Shown here piece after piece: positions 30,741 to 54,774 of a stretch of DNA of 56,046 nucleotides. Made by a program: the position numbers and the translations under genes. A model generated the notes under the pieces. It had not been told where the DNA came from. It saw only the letters and a list, made by a program, of their open reading frames with translations, and did no database searches. Numbering within the stretch: the first letter of the stretch is position 1; every line of letters begins with the position of its first letter. The stretch is taken from the NCBI GenBank assembly GCA_016188455.1, contig JACPHR010000007.1:1-56046 (forward strand), read 5' to 3'. This stretch comes from Candidatus Tayloriibacteriota bacterium. Lineage in GTDB: Bacteria; Patescibacteriota; Minisyncoccia; Phycocordibacterales; SIBU01.

Positions 30741-31212
30741 TTTTGTATTCGCCCATTCTTCGTTTGAGATAGTGTTCTCGCAGCTCAAAAAGGGGCTTCG
30801 CTTCTTCGTACGTCCGCAAGGCGTACAAAAATATCTCTGTGAAAAGATGGGGATTTTTCTCATAGAGCACAATAGCGTTTGTTGCAATTTGCTTCAGCAA
30901 AAGCGGGGGAGCTTTCTTAATGTTCACCAAGGATATTTTATCGTTCTTAAAAACAGGAATCAAATCGGAATTGAGAGTTGTTTCCTCTTCAAACGACAAT
31001 TTCCTGTCCGAAAAATACGCGATATCCACATCGCTTTCCGTATGCGTAAAACCGTTCGCCTGCGAACCAAAAAGTACCACGAGCGCCAGGCCGTGTTTTT
31101 GGGCGATTTCCGCTATCCCGCCTGCCAACGCCTGAAACTCTCGGCTATGGCGGGCAGGTCTTTTTTTATCCGCTTCGGTCATGCGGATACTATACCACGG
31201 AAAGTGTTTCAA
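30730..31212 (-). CDS. MNT antitoxin
   Basis: VLFGSQANG...SDVDIA; N-terminal in-frame REP-like insertion. Confidence 0.88.
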   Translation of the reverse strand: MKHFPWYSIRMTEADKKRPARHSREFQALAGGIAEIAQKHGLALVVLFGSQANGFTHTESDVDIAYFSDRKLSFEEETTLNSDLIPVFKNDKISLVNIKKAPPLLLKQIATNAIVLYEKNPHLFTEIFLYALRTYEEAKPLFELREHYLKRRMGEYKNAG

Positions 31213-31229: not shown

Positions 31230-32114
31230 CTACAAATTCTTTTCCGCCGCAATGAATTCATCCAGTTCACCCGAGAGCACCTTGTCCACTTGGGCGGTTT
31301 CCACGCCGGTGCGGTGGTCCTTGACCATTTTGTAGGGGTGCAAAACATAGGAGCGGATTTGATTGCCCCATTCTATGGAGGTGGTTTTTGAGATGTACAT
31401 GCCCTTTTCTTTGGCAATACGCTCGGCTTCTTGCAGCTTCCAAAGCTTGCCGCGCAGGATTTCAATGGCTTTTTCTTTGTTCTGGGCCTGACTTCTCTCC
31501 GAGGTAACATGGACCGAAAGTTTCGTGGGAATATGAACAATGCGCACGGCGGTCTCGCGCTTGTTGACATTTTGTCCCCCCGGGCCGCCTGATTTGGCGA
31601 TGGCAACTTCAAGGTCTTTGTCGGCAATGACAATGTCGCTTTGATGAGTTTTTGCGAACTTCGGTATCACCTCCACCATGGAAAACGAGGTGTGCCGTTT
31701 CTTCTGGGCGTTAAAGGGCGAGCTGCGCACCAGGCGGTGCACCCCGCTCTCGTTCTTGAGCGTCCCGTACGCGAGCGCTCCCATAATCTCCATCGTCACA
31801 TTGCGAAATCCGCCGTGGTCATTCTTGTTTTCGTGGACGATAGAAACATTCCATCCTTTCCGCGCGAAAAACTTCCGGTACATTTCAAGAAGCATCGCAG
31901 AAAAATCCTCGGCGTCGTCTCCGCCCGCGCCGGAAAAAATGGTCATGACCGCGTCTCCCCCGTCGTACGAGCTTCCGCCTAGGGCCTCGGCTTTAAGCGT
32001 CTGGAGTTTTTTGATGAGGACTTGCGCCCGAGCCTTGTCCGACCAAAAATCGGGCGCGTTCATCGCCTCTTCAATTCCTTTTATCCGCGCTTCTTTTTTT
32101 TGTTTTTCTTCCAT
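31230..32114 (-). CDS. prfB: Peptide chain release factor 2 (short N-terminus)
   Basis: FWSD, GVHRLVRSSPF (SPF), GPGGQNVN and WGNQIRSYV. Confidence 0.93.
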   Translation of the reverse strand: MEEKQKKEARIKGIEEAMNAPDFWSDKARAQVLIKKLQTLKAEALGGSSYDGGDAVMTIFSGAGGDDAEDFSAMLLEMYRKFFARKGWNVSIVHENKNDHGGFRNVTMEIMGALAYGTLKNESGVHRLVRSSPFNAQKKRHTSFSMVEVIPKFAKTHQSDIVIADKDLEVAIAKSGGPGGQNVNKRETAVRIVHIPTKLSVHVTSERSQAQNKEKAIEILRGKLWKLQEAERIAKEKGMYISKTTSIEWGNQIRSYVLHPYKMVKDHRTGVETAQVDKVLSGELDEFIAAEKNL

Positions 32115-32167
32115 TCGGGTCTGTCTTAATATTTTACAACTTGAAACTTTATAACTTGAAACTACCC

Positions 32168-32455
32168 TGGAGCCACCCCCGAGGAGCGAACTCGGGACCC
32201 CCGCTTTATCCGCCCGAAACGACTGTTTCAGTCGGGCGGGCGAAAGCGGTGCCCCGCCTGCCCTCGCCTGAGCCCACGGTCAGAATTGAACTGACAACCT
32301 ACGGTTTACGATACCGTTGCTCTACCAATTGAGCTACGTGGGCTTGGGCGATGGCGGGCAGGTCTACCAACTGAGCTACTCCGGCTCTAACGGGACCAAC
32401 TACCTGCCCCGTTGGCAAACATTCTGATGTTTTGCTTCGGGGGAGCTAGGGTGGC
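32168..32455 (-). pseudogene. tRNA-Thr(CGT) interrupted by three insertions
   Basis: Removing 32373-32442, 32253-32362 and 32209-32240 yields a 76-nt cloverleaf GCCACCC TA GCTC AGTTGGTA GAGC A CCGCT TTCGTAA AGCGG GGGTC CCGAG TTCGCTC CTCGG GGGTGGC T CCA. Confidence 0.8.
32271..32343 (-). tRNA. tRNA-Thr(CGT), intact, nested
   Basis: GCCCACG/CGTGGGC acceptor stem; ACGGT-ATCGTAA-ACCGT anticodon arm. Confidence 0.9.
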
Positions 32456-32502
32456 GTTTTAACTTTACAAACTTTCAACTTTATAACTTGAAACTGTCTC
32501 GG

Positions 32503-32575
32503 AGCCGTTGTCCGGGATTGAACCGGAGACCTCCGTCTTACCAAGACGACGCTCTACCAACTGAGCTACAACGGC
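32503..32575 (-). tRNA. tRNA-Thr(GGT)
   Basis: GCCGTTG/CAACGGC acceptor stem; TCGTC-TTGGTAA-GACGG anticodon arm. Confidence 0.93.
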
Positions 32576-40406: not shown

Positions 40407-40694
40407 TGGTGCCGGTGAATGGAGTCGCACCATTTTTTAGGGTTTACCCCCACACCAAACATTCGTTATGGTGTGGGGGTTTACTCGCCCGCCTAAATTT
40501 TGATTAGTGACGGAGGTGGGGATCGAACCCACGACCCCGGGCTTATGAGTCCCGTGCTCTACCGACTGAGCTACTCCGTCAAAATTTGGTCTGGTGAATC
40601 CCTCGTTCCCTGCCCTGTACCGAGCTTGGCTCTGGTACTGGGGTACTGTTGCCTGCCCGCCGTAGCTTTATGCGAAGGCGGGAACTACACCGGC
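40407..40694 (-). pseudogene. tRNA(CAT) interrupted by multiple palindromic insertions
   Basis: Removing the inserts gives GCCGGTG TA GTTC AACAGTA GAAC G AGGGA TTCATAA ACCCT AAAA AATGG TGCGACT CCATT CACCGGC A CCA. Confidence 0.72.
40508..40580 (-). tRNA. tRNA(CAT), elongator Met or Ile2, intact, nested
   Basis: GACGGAG/CTCCGTC acceptor stem; CTCATAA loop; GTGGG-TTCGATC-CCCAC T arm. Confidence 0.9.
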
Positions 40695-40949: not shown

Positions 40950-41285
40950 TGCTTTCTTACTTTGAATTACGAAACTGGCGCTTCAAGAACTTCCTCCCGC
41001 TTGCCCCAACGCCAATTTAACAAAACAGATATGCAGTGATTGTCGCGTGTCCATACCCGCCTCTCTCGTCAAAACCCCTCGCGCATCTTTGGTGAAATTG
41101 GTGCGGGGACTTGCCTCAGTCCGGACAAGGCGCGCGGTTTCTTACTTCGTACATTCGTACCGATTCGCCCGCCTGCCATCGCCCAAAGCAACTTACAATA
41201 TGCGTACACGGTTACAGTGTTATAAACATTTTTATTCATCCTATCACTGCTTGTTGCTCCGGCTTTGGCGGGCAGGTAATTCGCA

Positions 41286-54010: not shown

Positions 54011-54774
54011 ATATCAAGGAGACTCCTTGATATTGATATTTTCAAAATCTATCCACTCTTCTAGCATATCGCCAAAATCTGAGAACGAACCAAAATAATC
54101 AGGAAAGGAACTTGGCTCAATAATTAAACCCTCGTCCCTCCTTTGTCCAGAATAATCCTGGAAACTCGAGTACTTGTAGGAATAAAGAAATTTTTTTGCC
54201 GCAGATTTGTCTTTAAGTTTTTTCTCTTTCCAACCAACATCAACAATCCCAATCGGATTGAGATGAATGTAAGCGTATTGATACTTAAGATATTCGTCTG
54301 TGTTCAGATGTTTGGCACGGAATGGTCTATTAAACAAAGTACCCTTTCTTTTATACTTGGCATTGAAGTACATTGAATAGCCAGTCAGTAATTTCCGCAT
54401 GAAAAGACTGAGGCCGTTTCCTTGTTTCTCTTTAACAAGCAAGTGAAAGTGATTCGGCATAATGCACCACGCGCCAATATCAACAATGGTTTTTCCGCCT
54501 CTTGGAATTTCTAGCAAGGAGACTCCTTGATAATTGCTCAGGTGTATGGGTATAGAGCTGTTAGCTGTATATAAAAGAGTGGTAAATCGTTTATGATCAC
54601 CAGAGTCTAAAAAGATTTTCCTTTTTTCTACAGCTCTATCGTAGAGGTGATAATATTCATTTTCCGAAAAATTTAGATTCCTGCCCATTTCTTAATTCTA
54701 CACAAATAATCTTTTTACAGCAAGGAGACTCCTTGCCTTTGAATATCAAGGAGGAATATCAAGGAGACTCCTTG
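54011..54774. repeat. REP-like palindromes caaggag-a-ctccttg (4 copies)
   Basis: At 54015-54029, 54515-54529, 54721-54735 and 54760-54774. Confidence 0.9.
54014..54688 (-). CDS. REP-associated tyrosine transposase (RAYT, Y1 HUH)
   Basis: YYHLYDR, MPNHFHLL (HUH), YSMYFN, YIHLNP and YSSF. Confidence 0.88.
   Translation of the reverse strand: MGRNLNFSENEYYHLYDRAVEKRKIFLDSGDHKRFTTLLYTANSSIPIHLSNYQGVSLLEIPRGGKTIVDIGAWCIMPNHFHLLVKEKQGNGLSLFMRKLLTGYSMYFNAKYKRKGTLFNRPFRAKHLNTDEYLKYQYAYIHLNPIGIVDVGWKEKKLKDKSAAKKFLYSYKYSSFQDYSGQRRDEGLIIEPSSFPDYFGSFSDFGDMLEEWIDFENINIKESP

Follow-up and report, generated by a model that had tools for sequence, protein, structure and literature searches.

The 56,046-nucleotide (nt) stretch of DNA analyzed here, called the window throughout, is contig C14 of the genome of a Candidatus Tayloriibacteriota bacterium (G000). 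It contains an intact gene for tRNA-Thr(CGT) that lies inside a palindromic insert, and that insert lies inside a second, interrupted gene for tRNA-Thr(CGT). We think it likely that this locus is a stack of DNA insertions rather than a split gene whose parts are rejoined. On this view, a nonautonomous palindromic cassette bearing a whole tRNA gene would enter the cognate gene and take its place, leaving the outer gene as a relic. What carries this reading is the architecture of the locus, its recurrence elsewhere, the conservation of the arms and of the insertion sites, the matching of cargo to target, the variable decay of the surrounding shells, and the absence of a known splicing enzyme.

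All coordinates refer to the window unless a contig is named, and the features of the locus are on the minus strand. G000 comprises 893 kilobases in 31 contigs, is 98% complete, and encodes a transfer-messenger RNA and 45 tRNA genes; it is therefore the very small genome of a bacterium. Four minus-strand pieces (32455-32443, 32372-32363, 32252-32241, and 32208-32168) that were joined by script gave a 76-nt product called by ARAGORN as tRNA-Thr(cgt) over positions 1 to 76, with all four stems paired and CCA encoded. A preliminary description, made from the sequence alone, had proposed this gene, and both the reconstruction and its coordinates were borne out, as was the presence of a different, intact tRNA-Thr(CGT) inside the palindromic insert. 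The three inserts, C, B, and A, sit after outer tRNA positions 13, 23, and 35. Insert A (32240-32209) is a 32-nt hairpin at the 35/36 boundary with a DNA fold of -11.1 kcal/mol (z score, -3.9). In insert B (32362-32253; 110 nt), the arms pair end to end around the intact tRNA-Thr(CGT) at 32343-32271 (fold z score, -6.2). Insert C (32442-32373; 70 nt) has TAGCTC at both borders and terminates in GCCGGAGTAGCTC, with which a third tRNA begins at its 5' end. The outer T loop reads TTCGCTC, with a C at the expected A58; an A was found there in 16 of 16 comparators (15 genes of relatives and the inner gene), so that the lack of A58 noticed earlier stands. ARAGORN in batch mode reported "0 genes" for the unspliced stretch, though the inner gene was called in other ARAGORN and Rfam runs.

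No integrase gene was found within the inserts of 32, 110, and 70 nt, and the only open reading frame (ORF) of at least 60 amino acids that touches them (32141-32332, plus strand) runs across tRNA sequence. Direct repeats of the attL/attR type were absent from the A and B junctions, and C has just the 6-nt TAGCTC repeat, which the stub of the third tRNA explains. There were no terminator-like or promoter-like sites inside the locus.

The surrounding gene order identifies the resident gene. Relatives within the order have tRNA-Thr(GGT), tRNA-Thr(CGT), and a release-factor gene in succession (10 of the 22 relatives' loci that have both genes), and the outer gene occupies the middle slot. Compared with uninterrupted genes of relatives, the joined outer gene was 93.2% identical to that of G008 (74 nt), 90.8% to that of G038 (76 nt), 89.2% to that of G034, and 87.8% to that of G011. 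This match is far beyond chance. The inner tRNA-Thr(CGT) was instead 97.3% identical to the gene of G019 and 95.9% identical to that of G036, which belong to other families of the order and have no arms there. Because of the synteny and these identities to relatives' genes, we take the outer gene to be the resident and the inner gene to be the incomer. The inner gene is the only intact Thr(CGT) in G000, the tRNA set of G000 covers all 20 amino acids without the outer genes, and a CCA-adding enzyme is encoded; the inner gene is probably the working one.

Different states of the locus were found among close kin, as the preliminary description had suggested might be seen by comparing orthologous loci. 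The same-genus genome G004 has an uninterrupted gene of the outer type and thus represents an empty site. One metagenomic form, L043, shares the upstream spacer and the cargo with the window, has a different 5' strand, and is without insert C, the 3' arm, and the outer 3' part; it was found in sequencing runs X5 and X7. Therefore, close kin differ in state. A BLAST search with the Thr(TGT) nest described below (L023) against 41 genomes matched the inner-gene part alone, because a search of that kind needs longer sequences than the outer halves.

The arms of insert B are members of a repeat family. Six further exact copies of the 16-mer that starts the 5' arm were found in G000, and its 10-mer occurs at 32 places when both strands are counted. 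Most copies are palindromes of ~40 nt, with one arm passing straight into the other, and one of these is in the window at 31117-31158. Like repetitive extragenic palindromic (REP) sequences, REPINs, and miniature inverted-repeat transposable elements (MITEs), the family has many dispersed copies, ends that pair as a hairpin, and no coding capacity.

Nests with other cargo also occur in G000. At C21:7572-7762, a tRNA-Thr(TGT) gene is interrupted after position 35 by a hairpin element of 119 nt with an intact tRNA-Thr(TGT) inside it (ARAGORN in intron mode set the insert at position 34). At C22:22322-22506, the anticodon loop of a tRNA-Pro-like gene is interrupted by an element that has the same arm ends and contains an intact tRNA-Pro(TGG); the outer anticodon is TGG only if one additional T is counted with the insert. 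At C29:10546-10875, an intact tRNA-Arg(CCG) lies within the D arm of a tRNA-Arg(CCG)-like gene, which it divides. Orphan 5' fragments (13 to ~35 nt) and hairpins precede intact Arg(TCT), Lys(TTT), Ser(CGA), Ser(GCT), and Asn genes. Insert A has a sister hairpin at the 35/36 boundary of an orphan tRNA-Arg 5' half (C1:35897-35930), and hairpins at the 13/14 site were seen elsewhere in G000 (C1:55449, C26:28013, and window 40651-40682) and in loci L047, L088, and L093. ARAGORN's intron mode was useful for the C21 nest and was mis-set or spurious elsewhere in G000, calling the Pro nest "Ile(tat)"; brute-force deletion scans gave many alternative tRNA calls, and boundaries are not fixable that way.

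Several other places in G000 were noted. At window 40651-40694 (minus strand), a GC hairpin of the 13/14 type comes after an orphan tRNA 5' fragment, GCCGGTGTAGTT, ~70 nt upstream of an intact tRNA-Met(CAT) (40507-40580), and the site looks like a second relic locus of this kind. The arm ends CCTGCCCGCC ... GGCAGGCGGG also enclose ~80 nt at window 41168-41276 (minus strand), where neither ARAGORN nor Rfam called a tRNA; the content may be decayed or a different cargo. Layered, decayed tRNA-Pro-like genes that ARAGORN did not call lie at C19:4966-5256, the innermost with an aberrant T loop. Finally, ARAGORN called a tRNA-Ile with the anticodon TAT, which is unusual for bacteria, at C8:18422-18498 (minus strand).

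Recurrence beyond G000 was examined with the exact 22-mer at the junction of the D arm and the 5' arm. Among metagenome contigs, 41 carried the 22-mer; the nest was present in 37, and 4 were chance matches in coding DNA. Among species-representative genomes, 16 contigs carried it, of which 13 had the nest and 3 were chance matches. The shared architecture consists of outer tRNA-Thr positions 1 to 23, the 5' arm, a whole tRNA-Thr, the 3' arm, and the remainder of the outer gene, and the insertion point was always between positions 23 and 24 in these 50 contigs. The titles of 11 of the 13 nest genomes name Saccharibacteria, Moranbacteria/Moraniibacteriota, Paceibacteria, Falkowbacteria, Parcubacteria, or Patescibacteria; L083 is a nest in a Saccharibacteria genome. 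The remaining two nests are on small contigs of bins labelled Gammaproteobacteria and Nanoarchaeota, which we suspect to be mis-binned. The 16-mer was found in 5 of 401 genomes sampled evenly from the phylum (G000 included), versus none for a reversed control; the distribution of the element is rare and patchy. In viral contigs, the 5' arm followed by the start of the cargo was found in 0 stretches, which is no argument against a phage vector.

The recurrent loci show what is constant and what varies. We could parse 33 loci, of which 27 were distinct in arm and cargo. The 3' arm was near-invariant over these 27 combinations, though it lies outside the search pattern. The cargo varied in its acceptor, anticodon, and T stems and had the anticodon CGT or TGT, and identical cargo occurred with different outer genes (for example, L084 versus L098). 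Wherever the outer loop was uninterrupted, the cargo anticodon equaled the outer anticodon (18 of 18 loci, 16 of them distinct). Three loci (L048, L057, and L086) were nested three levels deep. The dispersed arms, together with the same unit in 37 metagenome contigs and 13 genomes, support one of the two explanations first offered for the locus, namely, that a cargo-carrying hairpin replaces the gene that it disrupts.

The outer shells were in various states. An intact tRNA-Thr began 24 to 27 nt past the start of the search pattern in 33 of 38 regions; in 3 others, it began one level deeper, and in 2 the contig ended too early. Every innermost gene that was readable was intact. Element-carrying shells came from 51 loci, which reduced to 44 distinct ones; 6 were too short to judge, and 38 were assessable. 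Eleven had a T arm and an acceptor of full complementarity where one insert alone would place it and are restored by removing the element, 3 had a complementary acceptor farther off with more nested inserts, 8 had an extra insert in the 5' part, and 16 had no matching 3' end by script. Clear breaks were seen in L059 and L070 (acceptor pairs, 4 of 7), L055 (no T arm), L075 (truncated), and L071 (no 5' part), and L043, L073, and L078 were without the 3' arm and the outer 3' part. In L061, two intact cargo genes occupy two sites of one outer shell; therefore, insertion follows the site and not function.

The history of the window locus can be read from its shells. The 5' strand beside the cassette, GCCGGAG, pairs with the 3' strand at 4 of 7 positions, and the distal GCCACCC pairs at 7 of 7. 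Within insert C, the hairpin gives way to AGTTGGT, with which a D loop would begin, and a short remnant resembling an arm comes next. This arrangement suggests a three-level nest minus the 3' half of its middle shell, partly collapsed, and that half was probably lost by recombination between near-identical D or anticodon arms. L098 can be read as a collapsed nest of the same type. The preliminary description had held that the intact outer stems are hard to explain by decay. The reconstruction on which this argument was built holds; the argument itself is weakened, because the D-arm piece 32372-32363, given to the outer gene in that description, fits the third tRNA just as well, and the perfect reconstruction is thus not the sole parse.

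Given these findings, we propose that the unit consists of two GC-rich pairing arms (CCTGCCCGCC... and ...GGCAGGCGGG) with a complete tRNA gene in the loop and that it moves as DNA. It would enter a tRNA gene of the same identity at a fixed point, which would be 23/24 in the D stem for this arm type and 35/36 in the anticodon for related types, and would destroy the resident gene. The cargo would then be cut from a read-through transcript by ordinary tRNA-processing enzymes and given CCA, so that it alone would function. The cell would lose nothing, and we propose that the insertion therefore persists. Insertions into noncognate tRNA genes would be lethal or costly, and none was seen. Repeated invasions would build shells within shells; these shells have near-identical D or anticodon arms, and recombination there would delete parts and leave chimeric or truncated shells. 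In the window, the inner gene would be the one that works, and the ancestral outer gene would bear the 13/14 hairpin, the 5' stub of the middle tRNA, the cassette, the 35/36 hairpin, and the A58-to-C exchange, in an order of events that we infer from the nesting. Because the insertion points are fixed and the arms hardly vary, a site-specific enzyme is implied, possibly one acting on folded single-stranded DNA; an enzyme of that kind would fit the fixed sites, the hairpin ends, and the lack of duplications.

Several points weigh against this proposal. Nonfunction of the outer gene was deduced rather than observed, and the six RNA runs each contain only 0.04 of the sampled words. Perfect restoration is possible for 11 outer genes, and L086 has three intact shells; the same result would be expected from selection on spliced products. 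The script found no T arm with a complementary acceptor in 24 distinct loci, a number that is an upper bound for broken shells because the script misreads shells with extra hairpins; in L072 and L076, the acceptor strands still match by eye, and hairpins lie in other arms. The search demanded an exact 22-mer and so sampled a single arm variant. Target-site duplications were not seen at the junctions, and there was no obvious motif common to the three sites. The strong conservation of the arms could reflect a role at the RNA level.

The candidates for a mover also count on this side. G000 has four ORFs that resemble Y1 transposases (one in the window and one each in C28, C19, and C18), none of them beside these arms. 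Small GIY-YIG ORFs, sought with a hidden Markov model of five G000 ORFs in six-frame translations, were present in only 4 of 57 loci (L042 to L098), at 370 to 2100 nt from the nest. A link of the Thr cassette to the Y1-like ORFs and one to the GIY-YIG ORFs were both set aside, since neither group showed a consistent association with it; the Y1-like copy of the window is flanked by a different palindrome, and no endonuclease gene was in or beside the Thr cassette. The Y1-like ORF of the window (54014-54688, minus strand; 224 amino acids) has CAAGGAG(A)CTCCTTG palindromes on both sides, and the Y1-like ORFs of G000 resemble a REP-associated transposase with its own, different repeat. At C8:12845-13449 and C26:28067-28282 of G000, small GIY-YIG ORFs (77 to 89 amino acids) lie between an orphan 5' fragment with a hairpin and an intact tRNA-Ser(GCT) or tRNA-Asn gene, and a second small GIY-YIG ORF lies directly downstream of tRNA-Ser(GCT).

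The observations just listed have to be weighed against other explanations. The inserts could be a new kind of bacterial intron, in which a putative endonuclease recognizes the arms, the cargo is released, and the outer halves are religated to give two or three mature tRNAs per locus; the preliminary description had raised unrecognized tRNA introns as its second explanation. The high conservation of the arms across several Patescibacteria classes and the fixed insertion points are what an intron would show, as are the exact restoration of 11 of the 38 assessable outer genes and the three intact shells of L086, and the whole precursor folds far more stably than shuffles (z score, -6.8). However, EndA (PF01974) had no match in G000, while four archaea among the control genomes were matched, and RtcB (PF01139) had none in G000 and matched 10 of 14 control genomes. 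When the folds were inspected by eye, with no dedicated scanner for bulge-helix-bulge motifs, the arms were paired to the junction, and no arrangement of two 3-nt bulges around a 4-bp helix was apparent at the exon-intron borders. Many shells would be useless even if spliced (acceptor pairs at 4 of 7, T arm or 3' half missing), the outer gene of the window has C58 and a proximal 5' strand that mismatches its 3' strand, and the genome does not need a second Thr(CGT). Searches for ribozyme families in Rfam gave tRNA matches only, both in the window at the gathering score and in L001 at E values up to 0.01. We conclude that RNA-level splicing is unsupported by these comparisons and that such introns are very unlikely. 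There is an even slimmer chance that the arms are the recognition structure for a putative RNA cleavage-ligation pathway, that is, protein-dependent tRNA splicing in a bacterium without EndA and RtcB that would yield two to three tRNAs per transcript.

Somewhat less improbable, yet still unlikely, is an origin without a dedicated mobile element. Foreign tRNA genes with flanking hairpins of a processing or terminator-like type would be taken up and would recombine with the resident gene through conserved D-arm or anticodon-arm sequence, and the nests would be left over from recombination, both homologous and illegitimate. That tRNA segments do recombine is shown by chimeric shells and collapsed nests (L098, L059, and the window), and inner-type genes occur without arms as ordinary chromosomal genes in G019 and G036. 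Yet the products expected from such events are replacements or tandem chimeras and not a whole gene at one exact bond (23/24) in 50 independent contigs with the same arms, and arm-only copies are scattered at unrelated places in G000. The hairpins, moreover, are unlike intrinsic terminators, and a role as terminators was rejected, with no terminator-like site found within the locus. An assembly artefact, in which reads from co-occurring strains with different tRNA-Thr alleles were misjoined, is extremely improbable. It could be entertained because tRNA sequences are common to several organisms and Logan contigs break within them. However, four DNA runs from one groundwater study contained 94 to 96% of the sampled words, and in two of them, X1 and X4, one contig covers 31900-32315 and another runs from 32298 or 32307 to 32533, each with 0 differences. 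Therefore, every junction is bridged in two runs. Both runs come from one study, which perhaps includes the source sample, and so they support the assembly rather than an independent organism. Matching architecture in 50 other contigs from many projects and assemblers likewise speaks against an artefact. Taken together, these comparisons leave the replacement of a resident tRNA gene by a cargo-carrying cassette as the likely account, and the features of the locus are listed below.

Features at and around the nested tRNA-Thr locus (window coordinates)
Feature	Position	Strand	Basis
Intact tRNA-Thr(GGT), upstream neighbor	32501..32575	-	ARAGORN; Rfam, 66.8 bits; fixes the synteny Thr(GGT) - Thr(CGT) - release factor
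Outermost tRNA-Thr(CGT), positions 1-13 (acceptor strand GCCACCC, TA, GCTC)	32443..32455	-	7/7 pairs with GGGTGGC at 32178-32172
Hairpin at the 13/14 boundary of the outermost gene (first 41 nt of insert C)	32402..32442	-	Sequence; fold of insert C
AGTTGGT (resembles outermost positions 14-20), then CCCGTTAGA, read as a 5'-arm remnant	32386..32401	-	Suggested by the sequence and by the arm CCCGCCTGCCTTAGA in L086
Middle tRNA, positions 1-23 (GCCGGAG TA GCTC AGTTGGTAGA)	32363..32385	-	Acceptor strand, 4/7 pairs with GGGTGGC; GCCGGAG 5' strand also in L058 and L097
Cassette 5' arm (CCTGCCCGCCATCGCCCAA), inserted after position 23	32344..32362	-	16-mer exact at 6 other G000 places
Cargo, intact tRNA-Thr(CGT), no encoded CCA	32271..32343	-	ARAGORN; Rfam, 70.3 bits
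Cassette 3' arm (CAGGCGAGGGCAGGCGGG)	32253..32270	-	Complementary to the 5' arm; hardly varies over the 27 distinct combinations of arm and cargo
Outer tRNA, positions 24-35 (GC A CCGCT TTCG)	32241..32252	-	Sequence joining; comparison with relatives
Insert A, 32-nt hairpin at 35/36, read as an arm-only element	32209..32240	-	Fold; sister copy in G000 at C1:35897-35930
Outer tRNA, positions 36-76, with encoded CCA; T loop TTCGCTC	32168..32208	-	Covering contig with 0 differences
Cargo-less copy of the palindromic element of insert B, downstream of the release-factor gene	31117..31158	-	Repeat search; fold z score, -2.9

The whole outer tRNA locus is enclosed by an exact 19-nt AT-rich direct repeat (32145-32163 and 32477-32495), and short AT-rich repeats similarly flank many GC hairpins of G000. 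In the adjacent release-factor ORF (31230-32114, minus strand; 294 amino acids), the PCRF profile is matched only from profile position 96 on, and the N-terminal part may be in another frame, as in the known prfB frameshift.

Inserts of other kinds were seen in and after tRNA genes of relatives. The tRNA-Thr(GGT) genes of many relatives (L018 of G003 at 1380-1670; G014, G013, G009, G007, G025, and G001) are split after position 36 by an insert of ~185 to 205 nt that ends in G. The position of the ~205-nt insert fits a group I intron, but Rfam gave no match to one at E values up to 0.01 (L018 and L019). Elements of ~190 nt that end in a copy of the tRNA's own 3' end follow tRNA genes in L012 (G002; ~700-1500), L014 (G005), L018 (G003), and G000 (C29:10659-10850); they are in tandem in G002 and had no Rfam match.

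If the proposed replacement is correct, Patescibacteria would host tiny selfish elements that are tolerated in an unusual way: they bear a full spare copy of the essential gene that they destroy, in place of self-splicing or of the restoration of a gene end only. This would explain why tRNA genes in these genomes are patchily related to host phylogeny, why tRNA finders miss or miscount genes there, and how tRNA genes can be replaced horizontally one by one. Layered nests would be a record of successive invasions at one locus. In practice, annotation pipelines should mask the relics, and the arms would serve as a simple marker for tracing the element.

We compared the cassette with known systems. 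Tyrosine-integrase islands are kilobases long, encode an integrase, carry the displaced 3' part of the gene, and have direct repeats at both ends; Williams, in 2002, reportedly described sublocation classes of such islands and of prophages in tRNA genes. The cassette is like them in its use of fixed points in tRNA genes, including the anticodon loop, in bringing replacement tRNA sequence, by which the host retains a functional gene, and in the tRNA fragments left by serial integrations. It differs in that it packs a whole tRNA gene into ~110 nt, has no repeat at the B and A junctions, and has no ORF. With REP sequences, REPINs, MITEs, and the Rickettsia palindromic elements, it shares a short, GC-rich, palindromic, noncoding structure and many dispersed copies. 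In contrast to MITEs, no target-site duplication was seen at the cassette junctions, and no cognate transposase is tied to the arms. We know of no REP, REPIN, MITE, or Rickettsia palindromic element that carries a tRNA gene or nests in its cognate gene.

Group I introns also interrupt bacterial tRNA genes and are frequent in metagenomic lineages. However, they are ribozymes of at least 200 nt that occupy the anticodon loop only, whereas the inserts here are 32 to 110 nt long, gave no ribozyme match, and use D-stem sites; only insert A, with its 32 nt, is found in the loop. SegB, a free-standing homing endonuclease of the phage T4 tRNA cluster, resembles the cassette in the selfish inheritance of a tRNA gene region, and it differs in that no endonuclease gene is in or beside the Thr cassette. 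Archaea have multi-intron, split, and permuted tRNA genes with bulge-helix-bulge introns, for which intron transposition has been proposed (PMC4033280, PMC4090602, PMC3293823). Archaeal tRNA introns are like the inserts in having noncanonical D-arm and anticodon-loop sites, several per gene, and GC-rich helices that join the halves; they are unlike the present case of a bacterium without EndA and RtcB, inserts that hold a complete tRNA, and outer genes that are often broken. The preliminary description had stated that no account of such an arrangement was known, and our full-text literature searches agreed, since they did not find tRNA genes nested in tRNA genes described in bacteria. The recurrence of the element in many related bacteria points to a type of mobile DNA not described so far, one that takes the place of the gene that it disrupts.

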